Counted from the stretch's first letter, positions 4,958-45,762 are shown. The stretch: 64,000 nt of DNA from an uncultured Pelolinea sp. (GCA_964612815.1 CAZTCV010000001.1:392885-456884); one strand, 5' to 3'. The notes: generated by a model from the letters alone, not told the origin. A program made the numbers and translations.

Positions 4958-5893
4958 ATGCAACCAAAACCTGTGATCATCGACTGTGATACCGGCACGG
5001 ATGACGCGATCGCGATCATCGCGGCGCTGTACAGCCCGGAACTGGACGTGCGCGCGTTCACGACTGTGGCGGGCAACGTGGATTTGGAATTCACCAGCCG
5101 CAACACGCTCAACCTGGTGCGTGAGCTGGGATTTGAGACGCCAGTGGCGGTAGGCGCAGAACGGCCGATCATCCGCGAAACGATCATCCATTCGGGTGAT
5201 CACACGCATGGAGATGAGGGGATGGGATGGCTGACGCTGAAAAAGACTGACGCGCCTTTTGACAGCCGGAACGCGGTGGAAACGATCTATGCCGAGGCGG
5301 TGGCGTGCGGAGGCGCGCTGGAACTGATACCGATCGGACCGCTGACGAATATCGCGCAGGCGATCATGGTCTATCCACAGCTAAAACAGCTGATCAAGCA
5401 GATCACATTCATGGGCGGGGCGATGTGGGGCGGGAACCTGACGACGACGGCGGAATTCAACATCTGGGCGGATCCGGAAGCGGCCAGGGTGGTGCTGGCG
5501 GCAGGGATCCCGCTGACGATGGTGGGGCTGGATGTGACGCTGAAGGCGGCGCTGAATCGCGAAGATACGGATGAGATCCGCGCGATGGGGACACGGGCGA
5601 GCGAGATCACAGCGGATATCCTGGAATTTATGCTGGAGCGCGTAAGCAAAGGGGGAGAGGACCTGCTGATGCATGACGCGCTGGCAGTGGGGGTGGCCAT
5701 CAACCCGGCGCTGGTGACGATGAATAAGTATTTCGTGGACTGTGAGATCCATGGGGAATATACATGCGGGCATACGTTTGTAGCGAACCGAAAATTATTC
5801 CGCAAGGAACCCAACTGCTGGGTGTGTGAAGAAATAGACCTACCGGCGTTCAAGGATTGGCTGAAGGGAGTGATCGGGCGCAGCAGGCGATAA
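4958..5893 (+). CDS. inosine/uridine-preferring nucleoside hydrolase family protein
   Basis: N-terminal signature IIDCDTGTDDAIAI (DxDxxxDD) and 311 aa length. AGGAG RBS. Confidence 0.9.
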   Translation: MQPKPVIIDCDTGTDDAIAIIAALYSPELDVRAFTTVAGNVDLEFTSRNTLNLVRELGFETPVAVGAERPIIRETIIHSGDHTHGDEGMGWLTLKKTDAPFDSRNAVETIYAEAVACGGALELIPIGPLTNIAQAIMVYPQLKQLIKQITFMGGAMWGGNLTTTAEFNIWADPEAARVVLAAGIPLTMVGLDVTLKAALNREDTDEIRAMGTRASEITADILEFMLERVSKGGEDLLMHDALAVGVAINPALVTMNKYFVDCEIHGEYTCGHTFVANRKLFRKEPNCWVCEEIDLPAFKDWLKGVIGRSRR

Positions 5894-37410: not shown

Positions 37411-38079
37411 TTAGTCCGGTTGATCCAAATCTGCCAGGCCGGTGCGCAAAGCATACAACGCAACCTGTGTTCGGTTTTGCAATCCTAACTTGGAATATAT
37501 GTTGGAAAGATGGAAGCGGACGGTGCTTTCATTGATGCCCTGACTTGCGGCGATATCTGGGTTTGATAAGCCCCGCGCGACGAGGGCAACAACCTGGCGT
37601 TCCCTTTTCGTGAGTATATCCAATTCGGAAGCACGATTTTCTGGGTGAATTAGTGATGCAAGAAGATCTGTCATCAGGTTGGGATAAATCCACATTTCAC
37701 CGCGCATGACGGCGTTTATCGCCTGGATCAATTCTTCGGGAGAGGTTTCTTTGAGAATATAACCGTTTGCGCCGGAACGCATGGTTTTCATGACCATAGA
37801 TTCCTCGGAATAGCTGGTGAGAACAAGGATCTTGATATCCGGAAATTGGCTTCTGATGATACGGATGGCTTCAGCTCCATCCATCAAAGGCATCAGCATA
37901 TCGAGAATGATGAGGTCGGGTTGTTGATTGGCAACCAACTCGAGCAACTCTTTTCCATTCCTGGCCTCACCGATGAGGCGATATTCAGGTTTGGGCTCAA
38001 GCATGATACGCAATCCCTGGCGCACTACGGTATGGTCATCCGCGATAATGATTCGGATCGTTCCTGTCATGGTTTGCAC
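37411..38079 (-). CDS. response regulator, NarL/LuxR family
   Basis: REC domain (IIADDH…DLIILDMLMP) plus a C-terminal LuxR HTH (LTKRERQVVALVARGLSNPDIA). Confidence 0.9.
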   Translation of the reverse strand: MQTMTGTIRIIIADDHTVVRQGLRIMLEPKPEYRLIGEARNGKELLELVANQQPDLIILDMLMPLMDGAEAIRIIRSQFPDIKILVLTSYSEESMVMKTMRSGANGYILKETSPEELIQAINAVMRGEMWIYPNLMTDLLASLIHPENRASELDILTKRERQVVALVARGLSNPDIAASQGINESTVRFHLSNIYSKLGLQNRTQVALYALRTGLADLDQPD

Positions 38080-39911
38080 CTATCAGGATTGATTGGAAGC
38101 GGGATAGCTACATGAACGTTGGTTCCGTGGTCAGGGGATGAGCGAATAGAAAGAAAGCCGCCAATTTTCTGCGCGCGTTCGCTCATACTTGCCAATCCAA
38201 ATCCTGCCAAAGCAGGGTCGGCAGGATGATCAAACCCGGTACCATCGTCGGCCACTTCCATGATGATTTTATCCTCCTGATTTTTGACTGTCAAAGATAC
38301 AGTGCCAGCATGGGAGTGTTTGAGGACATTATTAAGCGCTTCGCGCGCGATGCCAAACAGTTCTGTTTCAAGATCTGCTGGCAGCCGAAAATCCAGCGTG
38401 TATTGGATCGATGTTTTTATCCCCGCTCTTTTTTCAACCGTATTGAGGCGATGGCGCAAAGCGCCTTCGAGCCCCGCATTGGAAAGGATGGATGGGCGCA
38501 GTTCGTAGATCAACAAGCGCATCTCTTTTAACGATTGCCGGATGGTGCTTTTGATACTAGCGAAAATCTCACGTGTTTTTTCGATATCCCCCTGGCGGGC
38601 ATAGTCCTGACCACCATCCGCGGTGAGTAAAACGCTATAAAGCGATTGTGAGAGTGAGTCATGTAACTCGCGGGCGAGGCGCTGGCGTTCACGGTCCACC
38701 TCCGCCACTCGGGCGATCTCTCGCAGGCGTTCGCGTTCAATCATCTCAGAAAGCTGGTTAGTCGCCGCGGCGGCAATTTCCAGTTCAAGATCAGGTATCG
38801 GTTGTTCTTTTTCCCAGAGGATCAGTATTGCACCAAAATCAGCTCCCCTGGCTTTGAGCGGAAAAGCCAGCGCAACCGTAGAGTTGCATTGTGCGATCAG
38901 GCGCGGCAGCGTACCTTTCTCGCTGCTATGAATCACGGTTGCAGACCGCGTCATTTCCAATTCAAGCGAATAGGGAAACTGATCAAGAAGGATACCAGTC
39001 GATGGATCTGACACAAAAGATACAGTAAGGCGATCATCATCCTGACCACCACCATAGCGCAGGATAACACCTGCATCGGCGAATAGACCTGTGACGATCT
39101 CGCGCAATCCATTCTCGAGTTTGGTGGTGAGCGGGGAGAATTCGTTGGAGATGGCTGTGATGGCATAAAGCACCTGCAACTGACGCTGGGCCTGTTTCTG
39201 ATCAGTTACATCCTGGTGCGACCCAATGAAGTGCAAGGGATTTCCGTTCTCATCGGAATCCTTAACCAATCCACGCGCGCGAATCCATTTCCAGCGATCA
39301 GTTTTGGTTCTTATACGGTAATCAACCGCATAAAAGGGGACTTCACCAGCGATATGTTTATTCCATACATCCCAGAGATTTTGAATATCCACCGGATGCA
39401 CGAGGTTGATCCAGCTGCCAGTTTCAAACTCCTCGAAAGTGTAATCGAGCATGGTGGCATAGTAACTATTGATGGAGGTGGTATTGGTCTTGAACTGGTG
39501 ATCCCAGAGACCCAGCTGTGTGGCTTCAATGGCCAGGTTCAGACGGTTAATGATATCAAACTGGCGGGTGACATCCTGCAGAATAGCGAGGATGTAGGTT
39601 TTACTGGAAATCCTGATCGGGCTGGTGCGAAGCTCAATGATCTTCTGGGTTTGGTCAATATCGAGGGCGTGGATGAGATTAGCGTTTTCGTTGAGGCCCT
39701 CGATATCGATGACGGCACCAATCAGATTAACCTCCTGCTGGCCCAAGATCTTTCCTGCCTGGGCATTGGCAAAGACGACGGTGAAATCCGGCTGGAGAAT
39801 GAGAATGCCATCTGGAAAGCGCTCCTTTTCGACGGTCATAGCTGCCGGCCCTTCAAAGGGCAGGATCTTTTCTGAAAGCAGCTTGATGAAAGGGATCTCA
39901 GGTGTTGGCAT
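38067..39911 (-). CDS. sensor histidine kinase (PAS-PAS-GAF-HisKA_3-HATPase), cytoplasmic
   Basis: HisKA_3 H-box RLARELHDSLSQ, an HATPase_c C-terminus and PAS/GAF-like N-terminal regions. Overlaps the cognate RR by 13 nt. Confidence 0.85.
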   Translation of the reverse strand: MPTPEIPFIKLLSEKILPFEGPAAMTVEKERFPDGILILQPDFTVVFANAQAGKILGQQEVNLIGAVIDIEGLNENANLIHALDIDQTQKIIELRTSPIRISSKTYILAILQDVTRQFDIINRLNLAIEATQLGLWDHQFKTNTTSINSYYATMLDYTFEEFETGSWINLVHPVDIQNLWDVWNKHIAGEVPFYAVDYRIRTKTDRWKWIRARGLVKDSDENGNPLHFIGSHQDVTDQKQAQRQLQVLYAITAISNEFSPLTTKLENGLREIVTGLFADAGVILRYGGGQDDDRLTVSFVSDPSTGILLDQFPYSLELEMTRSATVIHSSEKGTLPRLIAQCNSTVALAFPLKARGADFGAILILWEKEQPIPDLELEIAAAATNQLSEMIERERLREIARVAEVDRERQRLARELHDSLSQSLYSVLLTADGGQDYARQGDIEKTREIFASIKSTIRQSLKEMRLLIYELRPSILSNAGLEGALRHRLNTVEKRAGIKTSIQYTLDFRLPADLETELFGIAREALNNVLKHSHAGTVSLTVKNQEDKIIMEVADDGTGFDHPADPALAGFGLASMSERAQKIGGFLSIRSSPDHGTNVHVAIPLPINPDRCKP

Positions 39912-40109: not shown

Positions 40110-40136
40110 AAAAGCGCTGGCATTGCCAGCGCTTTT
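40110..40136. terminator. bidirectional intrinsic terminator downstream of the fasciclin gene
   Basis: AAAAGCGCTGGCA-tt-GCCAGCGCTTTT. Confidence 0.75.
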
Positions 40137-40165: not shown

Positions 40166-41509
40166 TTATGCTGGCGGCAGGATCACGGTGTCAATGACAT
40201 GGATCACGCCATTGGAAGCCCGGATATCTGTCGCGGTGATGAGCGCGCCGTTGATGGCGGGGACGCCATTGCTGTGGATAGCGAAGGAGACGGTGGAACC
40301 CTGGAGGGTTGCCGCTTCGAGACCATCGCTCACGTCGGCTGCCATCACTTTGCCATCGATGACATGGTAGAGCAGAATATTTGCCAGCGCTTCGGGGTCA
40401 GCCAGTAACGCTTCCACGGTGCCCGCGGGCAGTTTTGCGAACGCTGCATCGGTGGGGGCGAAGACCGTGAATGGTCCCTCGCCACGCAATGCTTCTTCCA
40501 GCCCTGCTGCCTGGACAGCGGCAACCAGTGTCTCGAAGCTGCCGGCCGCGATCGCGGTATCGACGATGTCAGCGGGGGGCAGGATCACCGTGTCGATGAC
40601 GTGGATGACACCATTGAACGCTTCGATGTCGGTGGCGGTGATGAGCGCGTCGTTGATGGCGGGCGCACCGTCACTGTGAATGGCGAAGGAAACTGTGGAA
40701 CCCTGAGCGGTTTCCGCTTCCAATCCATCGGATACATCCGCTGCCATGACCTTACCGGGAACGACATGGTAGAGGAGAATGTCAGCTAATGCTTCCGGAT
40801 CTGCCAAGAGCGCTTCCACGGTGCCTTCCGGCAACTTGGCAAATGCTTCGTCGGTGGGGGCGAAGACCGTGAAGGGGCCCTTGCCGCGCAGTGTTTCTTC
40901 CAGGCCGGCGGCCTGTACGGCTGCGACGAGGGTATTGAACGAACCTGCGCCAACTGCTACGTCAACGATATCTGCCGGAGGCAGAATGACAGAATCAATG
41001 ACATGGATCACGCCATTGGACGTCTCGATATCGGTTGCGACGATCTCTGCATCGTTGATCATGACCTTGCCATCAGACACGGAGAAGGACACTTCCGCGC
41101 CGCGCAGGGTCTCGGCGACCAAACCGTCAGACACGTCGGCAGCCATAACCTTGCCTGGTACCACATGGTAGAGCAGGATGCGGGCTAACTGACCGGTTGG
41201 ATCTTCGAGCAGTGATTCAACGGTTCCTTCGGGAAGTTTCGCGAACGCTTCGTCAGAAGGCGCGAATACCGTGAAGGGGCCTTCGCCTTTGAGGGCTTCG
41301 GCTAATTCTGCTGCCGTGACAGCGGCGACGAGGGTTTCAAAAGAACCCGCCGCGATGGCTGTATCCACGATATCGGGCAGCACTTCCTCCATAACCTCTT
41401 CTTCCATTTCAGGCATGGGGGTTGGTACAACTTCCTGCTCTGCGGCGGGGGCCGCGCAGGCTGTGATGAGTAGAGCTAAAACTACTGATGCGACTATAAC
41501 CTTTTTCAT
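40166..41509 (-). CDS. lipoprotein with three tandem fasciclin (FAS1) domains
   Basis: Lipobox LLITAC. Three ~134 aa units carry [38 protein letters not shown] and [14 protein letters not shown]. Confidence 0.9.
40169..41374 (-). repeat. three tandem ~403 bp intragenic repeats encoding the FAS1 domains
   Basis: Near-identical DNA blocks recur at 40176, 40578 and 40981 (ggcaggatcac(g/c)gtgtc(a/g)atgac(a/g)tggat…). Confidence 0.85.
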
Positions 41510-41636
41510 GATTTACTCCTTTTTTTATTATTAATTTGGTTATGCACATATGATAGAAGAGCAATCACCATGAAAAAGACGGGATACGATAGAAACAGGT
41601 TGGGAATGGATTGAAACGGTTGGAAATTGGTTGGGG

Positions 41637-42362
41637 TCAGCTGGTTTCGGCAGGCGGGATGAAGCGGTAGCCGCCTTCACGGATGTTTTGGACGAGAGTT
41701 GGATCGGAGGGATCTTCTTCGATCTTCTGGCGCAACTGGTGGATGTACCATTTAATGTAGTTGCGCGCTTCGTGGCTGCTTTCGGGCGAAAAGCCGCCCA
41801 CCTCTCTGGCAAGTTCTTTGGGCGGGACAACGCGGTGGGTGTTTTGCATCAGGTAAACAAGGAGGCCAAACTCGCGACTGGTTAGATCCACTTCCTGATC
41901 ATTCTTTTTAACAATCAGTTTATCCTTATGCACGTAGACCGGGCCGACACGCAACTCAATCTGCTCGGCTTGCTCCTGTTTGAGGGAGAAATACTGTTTG
42001 CGCTTTTCGATCGCTTCCTGGGCAGCATCACGGATCTGATCCGGCCCGACTGGCTTGAGCAGATAAATATCGACACCCTCGCGGATGGCCTGCATGGCGG
42101 ATTCGAGCGAGCCATGCCCGGTAAGAATGATGACGGCCGTATCCGGCCAACGCCAGCGGATGGCTTCGAGGACGCGCAAGCCATCGACCTTGCCGCCCAG
42201 ATTGAGATCCAGAAAAACTAGATCGTAATGTTTATCGCGGATCAGATCGAGCGCCTGTTTGCCATCTGCTGCCAGCTCGATTTCATACCCGACCAATTCG
42301 AGGGCGCGCCCAATGAAAGTGCGGATATTTTGTTCATCATCGACAATGAGTGTTTGATACAT
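41637..42362 (-). CDS. response regulator, OmpR/PhoB family
   Basis: REC domain (DLVFLDLNLGG) plus a winged-helix output domain (LTSREFGLLVYLMQN…GGYRF). Confidence 0.9.
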   Translation of the reverse strand: MYQTLIVDDEQNIRTFIGRALELVGYEIELAADGKQALDLIRDKHYDLVFLDLNLGGKVDGLRVLEAIRWRWPDTAVIILTGHGSLESAMQAIREGVDIYLLKPVGPDQIRDAAQEAIEKRKQYFSLKQEQAEQIELRVGPVYVHKDKLIVKKNDQEVDLTSREFGLLVYLMQNTHRVVPPKELAREVGGFSPESSHEARNYIKWYIHQLRQKIEEDPSDPTLVQNIREGGYRFIPPAETS

Positions 42363-42401
42363 GATTGACCTATATTGATTGTATAGTAATCGATGAAAAA
42401 A

Positions 42402-44012
42402 TCAAGCGATGGGTAACGCGACTGTGAAGACCGCACCACCGTTTTGCCTGTTTTCGGCGCTGATCTGCCCGTGATGGGCATCGATGATGGCCTTGCTGAG
42501 ATGCAGGCCAAGACCAAGCCCTTCCTTTTTGGTGGTGAAGAATGGCTGAAAAAGGTTATTGATCTGTTCCGGCTTGATGCCAGGGCCATCGTCAGCGACA
42601 ATGATGTTGACCATTTTTTTGTCCTGTGATTGCGTTACGGAAAGATCGACCTGGCCATGCTCGCAAATCGCCTCGATGCTGTTGATGACCAGATTGAGGA
42701 TGACCTGGTGAATTTGTTCGGTATCCATGAGGACGAGCGGCAGTTTGTCCGCCGGGTGATAGACCAGGCCGATATGTTTCTCATCTGCTTTTTTGCGGGT
42801 GAGATTGATGACGCGATGAATAACATGATCCAAATCAGCGGGCTTTTTTTCTTTTAACTGGGGCTTTCGGCTGGCAGCCCGTAATTCGGCAACGATATTC
42901 TTGATGCGGTCTAATTCCTGGGCGGCAATATCGAGGTATTCGTTGAGCGGGCTGCCTGGATCGAGCGATTCAGATGCCAACCCGAGATAACCGATGATCG
43001 ATTGGAGCGGATTATTGATCTCATGAGCGAGAGAGGCAGCCACTTTCCCTACCGCAGAGAGTTTTTCTGACTGCAGAAGCGCTTGCTCGTTCAATTTGCG
43101 ATCGGTTATATCTTCAATGATATAGATAATGTTGGGCTGGTCCGCATCAGGCAATTGCAGTAGATAGATATTGATATTGACCCAGCTGTTTTGATTACCG
43201 GATTGGCTGATCGTCTTTTCCATTTCTTTTGTGGTGAATTTTTTCTGCAAAAAATCCGCCATGATTTTTGAAAAAGAAGCGAGATCTTCCTTAAAGAACA
43301 ATTCCGGCATTGAGAACTGGCAGATCTTTTCTTTGCTCAACCCGATGATATTCATAAGAGCATTGTTGCAGGTGATGATGCTGCCGCCGGTATCCGTGAT
43401 CGCGATACCAAGGGACGAATTTTCAAAAATACCTCTGAATTTTGCCTCGCTGGCGCTCAGTTCTCTCGTTTTTTCCCGCACCATATCTTCCAGGTTGGCA
43501 GCATAATCATTGATGATTTGATTGGATTTCTCCAGCTCGACCTGTTTTTTGGTCAATTCGCGCTGGAGGGTGGCCATCTCGGCGTAAAGCACACCGATAT
43601 CATCAAACAATTCCTGATCGGGGTGTGAAACTGGCGCTGATTCTGGAAGGGCCTGTTCTTCTGCTGTGCGGGAAATGCTTGTTGTTTGATCAGGGGCACC
43701 ACAAAATTTCTCCGTGAGCAGTTGGAGGTCCTCTTGATTTTGAGCAGCGACGATACACAGGGCGTCACCCAGGAGAACGCCATTCAGAATGAAATAATGC
43801 GCCTCGTCATTCAGCTCGAAGAAAATTTCCCAATTCTTTGCCTGCCCCTCCTGCCAGCCTGACTGGATGAAACGCGTGAATTTTTCACGGCTGCCTTTCT
43901 CCAGCAGGCCAAATAGATCGATGCCTGGTTGAAGCATTTCGGCCCATTCGCGTGAGGCGTGGGAGATGGAAAGCAGGTGGGCGCTTGCATCTGAATTGAT
44001 AACGAAGTCCAT
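42402..44012 (-). CDS. soluble sensor histidine kinase (unknown N-terminal domain, coiled coil, PAS, HisKA, HATPase)
   Basis: H-box AASLAHEINNPLQ, N/G boxes (NLVINSIEA, DDGPGI, GLGLGL) and no TM segments. Confidence 0.85.
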   Translation of the reverse strand: MDFVINSDASAHLLSISHASREWAEMLQPGIDLFGLLEKGSREKFTRFIQSGWQEGQAKNWEIFFELNDEAHYFILNGVLLGDALCIVAAQNQEDLQLLTEKFCGAPDQTTSISRTAEEQALPESAPVSHPDQELFDDIGVLYAEMATLQRELTKKQVELEKSNQIINDYAANLEDMVREKTRELSASEAKFRGIFENSSLGIAITDTGGSIITCNNALMNIIGLSKEKICQFSMPELFFKEDLASFSKIMADFLQKKFTTKEMEKTISQSGNQNSWVNINIYLLQLPDADQPNIIYIIEDITDRKLNEQALLQSEKLSAVGKVAASLAHEINNPLQSIIGYLGLASESLDPGSPLNEYLDIAAQELDRIKNIVAELRAASRKPQLKEKKPADLDHVIHRVINLTRKKADEKHIGLVYHPADKLPLVLMDTEQIHQVILNLVINSIEAICEHGQVDLSVTQSQDKKMVNIIVADDGPGIKPEQINNLFQPFFTTKKEGLGLGLHLSKAIIDAHHGQISAENRQNGGAVFTVALPIA

Positions 44013-44017
44013 TACGG

Positions 44018-44980
44018 CTATCCACCCAAACCGAATAAACGATTGGCAAGGGAAACAGCTTCATCGGCTGATGTGGCAAACCCGTCGCTGCCCACTTTTT
44101 TCCACAAATTATCAGAGATATTAAAAGGCGGACCGCCCACGATCACTTTGACCCGATTGGCCTGATCGCGTTCCCGTACGCCCTGGATGACCTGCTCGAT
44201 AATCGGGATCTGTTTGGATATGGTGGCTGACAGCGCGAGGAGATGGGGGCTGGTTTCATCTAAGGCCTGCAGGATGGCCTGTGACGGCGCATTGCCGCCG
44301 AGATAATATGTATCCCACCCGTCCATCTCGAAAAAGTCCGCCACCATGCGGATGCCGATGTCGTGCATATTAGAGTCGACACTGGCGGCGATCATGCGCA
44401 AGCCATTCTTTTGATTCGCGAAGATATAGGGGTAAAGCTGAGACATGATCATCTGGGTGGCGGCGGTGAAAAAATGTTCCTGGGCGATGGTGATCTGATT
44501 GGTCTGCCAGAGGCGGCCAATTTCATAGAGACTATTCTGGAACACATGCAGGTAGATATCGCGGACAGGGACGCCGGAAGCGGCGCTATCCAGAATCAAT
44601 GTTGAGGCTTGTTTGCGATCGCCGCCCAACAAGAGGGCGCGATAATTCGCAGAGAGCTCTGAAAGAGGATCATCGGTTGAATCCGGACTTTGATTTTTAC
44701 AATCCAGGCTGCAGATAGCGTCATCAATGAATTGGGTGACCTTTTCACCTGCGGCATGGTCCATTCCATCTGAAAAGGTGGCGCGGATAGTATCGAAAAG
44801 GTCAGCCACATCCTGCTCGGTATAGCCCTGGCTCAGGAAGCGGGTGCGTTTCCAGCAGAGGAAATCCTGCAGGATGGCTATGTCGTTGGCGTTCAAAGCG
44901 ACTTCCACCTGCTCAACGAGGGAGATGCCGAGCGCGGAGGTTAATTGGTTAATTTGTGCGGATCTATCCATAGGGTTCAC
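44018..44980 (-). CDS. cobalamin (B12)-binding protein of the CarH/AerR photoreceptor type, without a DNA-binding domain
   Basis: B12-binding_2 helical bundle with W158-x9-E168-H169 (RLWQTNQITIAQEHF). Rossmann B12-binding domain with lower-ligand motif SNMHDIG (H206). The stop lies 5 nt before the HK start. Confidence 0.8.
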   Translation of the reverse strand: MNPMDRSAQINQLTSALGISLVEQVEVALNANDIAILQDFLCWKRTRFLSQGYTEQDVADLFDTIRATFSDGMDHAAGEKVTQFIDDAICSLDCKNQSPDSTDDPLSELSANYRALLLGGDRKQASTLILDSAASGVPVRDIYLHVFQNSLYEIGRLWQTNQITIAQEHFFTAATQMIMSQLYPYIFANQKNGLRMIAASVDSNMHDIGIRMVADFFEMDGWDTYYLGGNAPSQAILQALDETSPHLLALSATISKQIPIIEQVIQGVRERDQANRVKVIVGGPPFNISDNLWKKVGSDGFATSADEAVSLANRLFGLGG

Positions 44981-45126
44981 CTTGAAAATAATTGTATCAA
45001 TATCAAGCTAAAGCTTCAAACGCACGAACGATGATCACAGCCAACCATTTACCAACTAAACCCCGAATGAGGACATCATTTAATGGTGATTGGCCGGGAT
45101 ATAGTTAGATAAAAAATGGAGTCACA

Positions 45127-45762
45127 ATGAAAACTATCATGGTATATGGCGCCGCAGGCGGGATTGGCAGCGCCATCGGAAAATATTTTAAGGACAGGGG
45201 ATCCGCGGTTGTCGCGGGCGTGCGGCACGCCAATGGGAACGGACTTGTTTTCGCGGATGTGATCGTTGAAGGAGATTTTTCATCTGAACAGGATGCGGCC
45301 GCGATGGCCAGGGCTGTGGCGGAAGAGGTGGATCAGATCGATCTATGGGTCTACGCCGCAGGCGATATTCACTATGAAACAGCGCAAAACCAAAACGCAA
45401 ATGATTGGATGCGCATGTTTAATGCAAACCTGTTCGGGGCCCAACAAACACTGAAGCAGAGCCTGCCGTTATTAGCGGCGGAAGCGCACATTATGATGGT
45501 TGGCGCGTATACAGACCGGCTGACGATGCCAGGGCTTTCCGCATATACAGCGTCAAAAGCCGCGCTGGCGGCATATTCTGCTGTGATCGAAAAGGAATTG
45601 CGCGGGATGAAAGTGTCACTGATCCGCCCGTCTGCAGTAGACACACCTTTCTGGAAAAAAGTTCCGTTCAAACTGCCAGCAAACGCGCTGCTGCCTGAAG
45701 ATGTGGCCGAGAAAGTTTTTAGTGTTTATGTGCAGGGATTATCCGGGCTGGTGGACCTGTAA
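45127..45762 (+). CDS. short-chain dehydrogenase/reductase (SDR) family protein
   Basis: GAAGGIGSAIG cofactor motif and catalytic YTASK (YxxxK). Confidence 0.85.
   Translation: MKTIMVYGAAGGIGSAIGKYFKDRGSAVVAGVRHANGNGLVFADVIVEGDFSSEQDAAAMARAVAEEVDQIDLWVYAAGDIHYETAQNQNANDWMRMFNANLFGAQQTLKQSLPLLAAEAHIMMVGAYTDRLTMPGLSAYTASKAALAAYSAVIEKELRGMKVSLIRPSAVDTPFWKKVPFKLPANALLPEDVAEKVFSVYVQGLSGLVDL

Follow-up and report, generated by a model that had tools for sequence, protein, structure and literature searches.

A predicted photoglobin–B12 sensor encoded with a soluble histidine kinase and an OmpR-family regulator in an uncultured Pelolinea species

This report concerns a gene cluster from an uncultured Pelolinea sp. 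encoding a predicted photoglobin–B12 sensor protein, a soluble histidine kinase and an OmpR-family response regulator. The cluster lies in a stretch of 64,000 nucleotides (GCA_964612815.1 CAZTCV010000001.1:392885-456884), referred to here as the window, in which positions are counted from the first letter. An earlier note, made from the sequence alone, had described the sensor protein as a CarH-type B12-binding module without a DNA-binding domain and had proposed that it relays light or cobalamin state to the kinase by protein–protein contact. The three genes are co-directional on the minus strand (44980..44018, 320 amino acids from a GTG codon; 44012..42402, 536 amino acids; 42362..41637, 241 amino acids). 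Gene calls and Pfam matches agree with that note on their arrangement: the B12 gene stop codon is separated by 5 nt from the ATG of the kinase gene, and a gene for an OmpR-type regulator comes next. The features of the three genes are these:

44018..44980, minus strand: photoglobin–B12 sensor protein gene (open reading frame (ORF), Pfam, AlphaFold2 (AF2) model, matches to solved structures)
44669..44980, minus strand: truncated photoglobin (phycobiliprotein-like globin), residues 1-104, five helices (alignment, profile search, AF2)
44435..44644, minus strand: four-helix-bundle cap, B12-binding_2, residues 113-182 (Pfam, alignment)
44054..44398, minus strand: Rossmann-type B12-binding domain, residues 195-309 (Pfam, alignment)
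42402..44012, minus strand: soluble sensor histidine kinase, 536 amino acids (ORF, Pfam, motif check)
43698..44012, minus strand: family-specific PAS-like domain at kinase residues 1-105, where the B12 protein is proposed to dock (AF2, Foldseek)
43458..43619, minus strand: long coiled-coil linker, kinase residues 132-185, following a disordered segment (110-130) (AF2)
43098..43445, minus strand: second, canonical PAS domain, kinase residues 190-305 (Pfam)
42408..43049, minus strand: HisKA (residues 322-383) and HATPase_c (430-535) domains of the kinase (Pfam)
41637..42362, minus strand: OmpR-family response regulator, REC domain at residues 5-114 and winged helix at 155-234 (Pfam Response_reg, Trans_reg_C)

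The true start of the B12 gene is likely to be the ATG at 44971, because this codon is preceded 5 nt upstream by a ribosome-binding site (AAGGTGA), because it gives a 317 amino acid product of the same length as the public cluster representative and because the orthologues begin, at the same position, with MDK or MDR. Residue numbers of the B12 protein used here count from the GTG at 44980, and with the ATG start all of them would therefore be 3 lower.

Pfam searches detected both of the families that the earlier note had suggested looking for in this protein: PF02607 covers residues 113-182 (E 5e-13) and PF02310 covers residues 195-309 (E 1.5e-21). The motifs lie at the nucleotides originally given for them: Wx9EH (W158-x9-E168-H169) occupies nt 44474-44509, or 44474-44518 when the overlapping GxxW element (G155-R-L-W158) is included, whilst the predicted lower axial ligand, H206 (nt 44363-44365), is found in the loop D-S-N-M-H-D-I-G. 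A GxxxP element (G228-G-N-A-P232) is encoded at nt 44285-44299. An alignment of 40 relatives shows no variation at W158, E168, H169, H206, G209, G228 or P232, and W158 and E168-H169 align in phmmer with Trp61 and Glu71-His72 of the photocobilin SasPcob. The two-domain B12 module and its adenosyl-pocket motif resemble those of Thermus thermophilus CarH (5C8A/5C8D), the spacing of W158/E168/H169/H206 nearly matching that of W131/E141/H142/H177. Unlike CarH and LitR, the window protein has no MerR head, and its output would pass through a separate kinase and regulator rather than by direct binding to an operator. Assignment to CarH/LitR proper was rejected: Pfam finds no MerR match, and the NCBIfam CarH model scores 38.7 bits against a cut-off of 400, over the B12 part only. 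Sequence comparison thus supports a B12 module carrying a CarH-type adenosylcobalamin (AdoCbl) signature without a DNA-binding head.

Chance can be excluded as the source of the Wx9EH motif because the three other B12-binding proteins encoded in the genome, which are ~215 amino acids in length and have a canonical GDxHDIGK loop, all lack it. At least one of the three adjoins an MTTB methyltransferase gene, and they provide a yardstick for the suggestion that the window protein is itself an ordinary corrinoid methyl carrier of the MtbC/MtgC type that happens to lie beside an unrelated two-component system. The best NCBIfam matches are MtgC, MtbC and pyl_corrinoid, and JGI labels many of the relatives 'methanogenic corrinoid protein MtbC1', but the scores fall five to six times under the family cut-offs (62 bits against 370), no MTTB-type methyltransferase gene is adjacent in the window or in the orthologous loci, the genome's other corrinoid proteins are of the shorter kind and are encoded elsewhere, and the kinase partner is conserved within a few nt and is fused to the B12 protein in some species. 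We rejected the methyl-carrier explanation, which appears very improbable.

The AF2 model of the B12 protein (mean predicted local distance difference test (pLDDT) 90, predicted template modelling score (pTM) 0.88) begins with five helices, followed by a four-helix bundle and a Rossmann domain. Its top matches in the PDB, by sequence and by fold, are the photocobilins (8J2W, 8J2X, 8J2Y) and the light-responsive cobalamin-binding domain of CtMerR (8JBS), with E 1e-20. The best Foldseek match is to the dark state of SasPcob (root-mean-square deviation (rmsd) 1.8 Å, 206 columns, 28% identity), followed by the CtMerR cobalamin-binding domain and AbPcob, with CarH, MetH, corrinoid proteins and AerR at lower ranks.

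The N-terminal region had been described as an unrelated segment of ~130 amino acids. This part of the earlier description does not stand: the region is ~105 amino acids long and profile searches identify it as a truncated photoglobin, homologous to the phycobiliproteins and to the globin of the photocobilins. A protein-collection search returned ~2,400 relatives of the window protein, most of ~352 amino acids and 42-47% identical over ~90% of the length, many of which carry a precomputed match to PF00502 (phycobilisome protein). PF00502 scores above the Pfam cut-off at residues 7-123 in seven of these long-form relatives, and an N-terminal profile that includes the short form found in the window matches allophycocyanin (E 9e-10) and residues 254-320 of SasPcob (E 1e-6), the latter being its bilin-binding globin. 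A fold search for the globin with the whole model was unsuccessful: Foldseek aligned the B12 half only, because the domain order is permuted. With a truncated photoglobin at its N-terminus, the protein is a domain-permuted relative of the photocobilins.

Photocobilins bind both AdoCbl and biliverdin, respond to green and red light, dissociate from dark dimers into monomers in the light and regulate a diguanylate cyclase both in cis and in trans, the stand-alone form acting by protein–protein contact (Zhang et al. 2024; PMC10979010). Like SasPcob and AbDPcob (8J2W, 8J2X, 8J2Y), the window protein combines a CarH-like module, having the Wx9EH motif and a histidine lower ligand, with a phycobiliprotein-like globin and has no DNA-binding domain, and the stand-alone photocobilin likewise acts on a partner enzyme. 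Unlike theirs, its globin is N-terminal rather than C-terminal, is shorter by two helices and is missing the bilin-binding Asp, its His loop reads SNMH in place of GxxH with E/DxH, it is paired with a histidine kinase bearing a dedicated PAS-like domain rather than with a diguanylate cyclase, and the system is known from sequence.

Could the globin still bind a bilin such as biliverdin beside the corrin ring, giving a two-chromophore photocobilin with a red-light response like that of SasPcob? That the domain is homologous to phycobiliproteins and to the globin with which photocobilins bind bilin would favour this, as would the compact, high-pTM model, which fits a globin–B12 hub. The bilin-binding motif CXQD/SXRD (PMC10151467) is also retained by the long-form relatives, which read KCLQD or KSVRD. 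Members of the short subfamily (316-320 amino acids), to which the window protein belongs, lack the first ~38 residues, corresponding to globin helices 1 and 2, and the first helix that remains in the model is of low confidence (pLDDT 55-66). At the CXQD/SXRD position the window protein reads ..AQINQ.., so that N11 or Q12 takes the place of the key Asp (Asp270 of SasPcob), for which close orthologues have D, N or E; a His at this position weakens biliverdin binding in AbPcob (PMC10979010). In addition, a search of the genome, which is 95% complete, gave no heme oxygenase of PF01126, the one heme-degrading family covered. Because helices 1 and 2 are missing, the Asp is absent and PF01126 is not found, bilin binding by the window protein is unlikely on sequence grounds, and we regard a two-chromophore sensor as improbable. 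The globin has probably lost bilin binding in the short-subfamily clade, in which case the protein would be a B12-only sensor of ultraviolet (UV)-to-green light.

The kinase is, as predicted, without a membrane segment, its hydropathy maximum (1.63) falling in a confidently folded PAS strand. Its catalytic motifs are intact (H-box His330, nt 43023-43025; G1 DDGPG at 474; G2 GLGLG at 498), as are the catalytic residues D8, D9, D52 and K103 of the regulator, so that all the residues and domains of a classical two-component system, a HisKA kinase with an OmpR regulator, are present. The start of the kinase had been called unassigned, and this holds as far as Pfam is concerned: Pfam matches nothing in residues 1-185, either in this kinase or in 36 homologous ones, and an attempt to identify the N-terminus by Pfam across the 37 members gave coiled-coil noise and HisKA only. 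It does not hold for structure. AF2 predicts a PAS fold for residues 1-105 (pLDDT ~97; strands 3-7, 12-19, 57-67, 70-81 and 84-90, with intervening helices) and a long helix spanning residues 132-184, and Foldseek matches residues 1-105 to many PAS domains (template modelling (TM) score 0.65-0.72, rmsd 2.1-2.8 Å). On these models, the kinase N-terminus is a predicted PAS fold that is invisible to the Pfam PAS models.

Most of the partner kinases are ~400 amino acids long and consist of the PAS-like domain, the coiled coil and the catalytic core; the window kinase has a canonical PAS domain inserted. Within the PAS-like domain, Trp61 (FDWE) is invariant and a Cys is near-invariant (consensus ALLCD, in at least 90% of 37 sequences). 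The window kinase has Ser (VINSD) at the Cys position, residue 8 (nt 43990-43992), where its closest relative (locus L001) keeps the Cys.

The connection between the B12 protein and the kinase extends far beyond the window. At least 594 genomes in a one-genome-per-species collection encode a relative of the B12 protein, and 80 loci were drawn from this collection. The sampled loci come from Chloroflexota, Heliobacteria, Paenibacillus, Acidobacteriota, Verrucomicrobiota, Bacteroidota/Balneolaeota-type genera, Desulfobacterota, Gemmatimonadota, Planctomycetota, Armatimonadota and Methanobacteriaceae. A histidine-kinase core is immediately downstream of the B12 gene, or fused to it, in 55 of the 68 species-level loci with enough downstream sequence. 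Of the 76 loci that leave room for the PAS-like domain, 61 encode it on the same strand as the B12 gene, as detected with a hidden Markov model (HMM), the median distance from the B12 stop codon to the start of the domain being 11 nt; the HMM has no further match in the 849 kb of those loci. As 36 of the 61 had contributed to the HMM, 25 are independent detections. When 200 genomes of the phylum were sampled, the domain was found in two, one of them the present genome, and in both it lies beside a gene for a CarH-type cobalamin-binding domain. In the other (G108:C43:12649-14255) the order is reversed, a 314-aa ORF with the PAS-like domain lying ~640 nt upstream of a 220-aa ORF for a globin-less cobalamin-binding domain.

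Natural fusions are also found. In two (P0081 and L021) the place of the PAS-like domain, immediately ahead of the coiled coil and H-box (LNNEL...AAHDLRNPL), is taken by the B12 module, and locus L027 provides two further B12–kinase fusions. The tight coupling of the pair across many phyla, its exclusivity and these fusions support direct functional coupling of the B12 protein and the kinase, as had been proposed, which may involve physical contact between the two. The distribution of full orthologues is patchy: there are none in four genomes of the same family and no full-length one in the 200-genome phylum sample. Relatives from Methanobacteriaceae (L017, L033, L034, L049, L059, L074) have no adjacent PAS-like kinase, and a gene with a REC domain is found 2-3 kb away on the opposite strand; these loci were searched with a HisKA-type query, which may have missed HisKA_2 kinases.

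The three genes form part of a larger unit, the remaining features of which are as follows:

45127..45762, plus strand: divergent gene for a short-chain dehydrogenase (SDR), 211 amino acids (Pfam, synteny)
45041..45057, plus strand: second repeat copy, CCAACCATTTACCAACT, in the SDR/B12 spacer, 70 nt from each start codon and pointing to the SDR gene
44991..45019, minus strand: promoter-like site for the B12 gene, TTGAAG, 17 nt, TACAAT, with an extended TG (by consensus match only)
41598..41634, minus strand: three direct CCAACC repeats (41634-41629, 41623-41618, 41603-41598), candidate operator
40166..41509, minus strand: lipoprotein with three FAS1 (fasciclin) domains and lipobox LITAC, fourth gene of the module (Pfam, synteny)
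40110-40136: terminator-like hairpin after the FAS1 gene

Six orthologues of the short subfamily, 43-89% identical and from different metagenomes, are all encoded with a ~536 amino acid kinase and a ~240 amino acid OmpR regulator. The divergent ~211 amino acid SDR is present in all five ortholog loci with upstream sequence, and a gene for a ~445 amino acid FAS1 protein comes next wherever the contig continues; in locus L092 an unannotated gene, cut by the contig end, is found in that place. The outer flanks of these loci differ. The divergent SDR gene and the B12–kinase–OmpR regulator–FAS1 genes therefore make up a five-gene module that is conserved in the clade of the window. The earlier note had allowed that its proposal would fall if the gene trio were not found together elsewhere, and since the trio and two further genes are conserved in its own clade, this objection fails. 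The SDR has no specific NCBIfam assignment, and the locus contains no riboswitch or other known RNA in Rfam, whose only matches in the window are two tRNAs elsewhere.

Past the FAS1 gene, at 37411-39911, lies a second two-component system, comprising a PAS-HisKA_3 kinase of 614 amino acids and a LuxR/GerE-type regulator. This is probably outside the module, because its synteny is shared only with the closest relative (L086/L087).

Regulators of the OmpR/PhoB family usually bind direct repeats that recur every ~11 bp, and the two spacers of the module contain a candidate of this kind. Starting 3 nt past the regulator stop codon, the set of three CCAACC repeats precedes the FAS1 ATG by ~90 nt. 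In six orthologous loci the three repeats are invariant whilst the spacers have otherwise diverged; the first and second are spaced with an 11-nt period, and the third follows 20 nt on. In the SDR/B12 spacer, where the consensus on the B12 strand is GGTTGG-N5-GGTTGG, the repeat sits 22 nt upstream of the promoter-like site of the B12 operon. Allowing up to one mismatch, the 67 kb of orthologous loci contain 14 matches, of which 13 are in these two spacers, against a background of 4 in 849 kb of long-form loci. An attempt to define a genome-wide regulon with the one-mismatch pattern was uninformative, the repeat and a reversed control each giving 18 matches, and because the genome-wide frequency equals that of the control, it is the position and conservation of the repeat that argue for an operator.

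The 2.7-Mb genome has a sole other exact CCAACC-N5-CCAACC (G000:C2:422749-422765; locus L097, 1501-1517), which is intergenic and lies ~55 nt upstream of, and facing, a gene for a SOUL heme-binding protein (Pfam E 1e-46). About 0.3 exact matches would be expected by chance genome-wide, and the SOUL gene, which belongs to a tetrapyrrole-binding family, may be a further member of the regulon or a coincidence.

What signal might such a system detect? A published signature, GxxW/EH/GxxH/GxxxP, separates light-responsive cobalamin-binding domains from others (PMC11796333), and the roles of the adenosyl-pocket residues and of the E/DxH element have been described (PMC10979010). GxxW, EH and GxxxP are present in the window protein and GxxH with E/DxH is not. 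A PduO-type adenosyltransferase, a microbial rhodopsin (G000:C1:207851-208405) and a photolyase-type flavoprotein are all encoded in the genome, and one ortholog module (L093, whose B12 protein is 43% identical) has a gene of the bacteriorhodopsin family (5209-5808) behind the FAS1 gene, on the same strand. Rhodopsin, photolyase and adenosyltransferase fit a light-exposed lifestyle, although light sensing is not proven thereby.

The main rival to a light signal is a chemical one passed along the same relay, the B12 protein reporting how much cobalamin is available, which type of upper ligand is bound or the redox state. AerR and PpaA (7TE2) offer a precedent, being B12-binding proteins without a DNA-binding domain that act via a partner, and AerR is among the fold matches of the window protein; the match is a distant one (rank 31), the partner of these antirepressors is the repressor CrtJ/PpsR rather than a kinase, and they have no globin. 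Members of the family are frequent among anaerobes and archaea whose habitats may be dark, the altered His loop (NxH, SxxH) could shift ligand preference, and cobalamin status matters to an organism that runs several corrinoid-dependent methyltransferase systems. Set against this, the full adenosyl-pocket signature (GxxW, Wx9EH), which marks light-responsive domains (PMC11796333), is invariant, the closest characterised relatives are all photoreceptors, the genome has the rhodopsin and photolyase (with a rhodopsin gene following one ortholog module) and the predicted outputs, FAS1 lipoprotein and SDR, have no evident link to cobalamin metabolism. On balance, non-photic cobalamin sensing seems to us unlikely, though it deserves to be taken seriously.

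Taken together, these results lead us to favour, as the probable explanation of the locus, a stand-alone photoglobin–B12 photoreceptor subunit of the photocobilin type that signals via the kinase and the OmpR regulator to the FAS1 and SDR genes. The protein would hold AdoCbl in the dark, with W158, E168 and H169 over the adenosyl group and H206 as lower ligand of the cobalt. Light from the near-UV to green would break the Co–C bond, and this cleavage would shift the E-H helix of the four-helix bundle and alter an oligomeric or contact surface. The altered surface would be read by the N-terminal PAS-like domain of the co-translated kinase, changing autophosphorylation at H330, and the kinase would in turn phosphorylate D52 of the regulator. 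The regulator would then bind CCAACC-N5-CCAACC and control, whether positively or negatively, the genes for the FAS1 lipoprotein and the divergent SDR, and probably also the operon that encodes it. The complete picture, a B12-gated two-component system with a separate photoreceptor subunit docked on a Pfam-invisible kinase PAS domain, a bilin-less UV-to-green range and a CCAACC-N5-CCAACC operator governing FAS1 lipoprotein and SDR, makes more demands and is put forward tentatively, as a scheme that may well prove wrong in one of its parts.

Several observations weigh against a photoreceptor with this output. The lower-ligand loop S203-N204-M205-H206 has SxxH and NxH in the place of the published GxxH and E/DxH, a substitution common to the whole short subfamily (the long-form relatives read GGELH). 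Identity to characterised proteins is ~25-28%, so that cofactor binding and photoactivity are assigned by homology; the sequence match to CarH is weak (E 7e-4), and the best NCBIfam matches, far under cut-off as they are, are to the methyl carriers considered above. Many carriers of the family are anaerobes or methanogens, for which light may be scarce, and the one-mismatch repeat is no more frequent in the whole genome than its reversed control.

The idea of such a system is not itself new. Schneider et al. (2021; PMC8717448) predicted from computational analysis that photoglobin and B12 domains form a sensing bundle tied to two-component systems. The loci described in that paper have the photoglobin before or after B12-binding_2 and B12-binding and lie in operons with histidine kinases and response regulators, with occasional kinase fusion, all as seen here; its globin alignment includes an Anaerolinea sequence, and by the authors' own statement none of those loci had been studied. 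The treatment is general, and in the sections consulted the PAS-like kinase domain, truncated globin, SDR/FAS1 module and repeat operator are not singled out. The earlier note had suggested that a dedicated kinase partner of this kind was uncharacterised, which remains correct in so far as our literature search found no experimental description of a B12-controlled histidine kinase, but the kind had already been predicted. Overall, the interpretation offered in that note is partly supported. The system belongs to a kind that was computationally predicted earlier, and what the present locus adds is the truncated globin, the altered His loop, the Pfam-invisible PAS domain of the kinase, the five-gene module and the candidate operator.

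To date, B12 photoreception has been shown experimentally for transcription factors (CarH/LitR), AerR-type antirepressors and one diguanylate cyclase, whilst B12-controlled histidine kinases have been predicted only. One biochemical demonstration would annotate a large family, with relatives in at least 594 species-level genomes, whose members are now mislabelled 'MtbC1' or 'MerR'. The locus described here is a compact test case for this purpose, with soluble proteins, a defined proposed docking domain, an OmpR regulator, a candidate operator and two candidate targets, and it could supply a green-light two-component switch for synthetic biology. If the proposal is true, light would control the surface or adhesion properties of a filamentous Chloroflexota bacterium.

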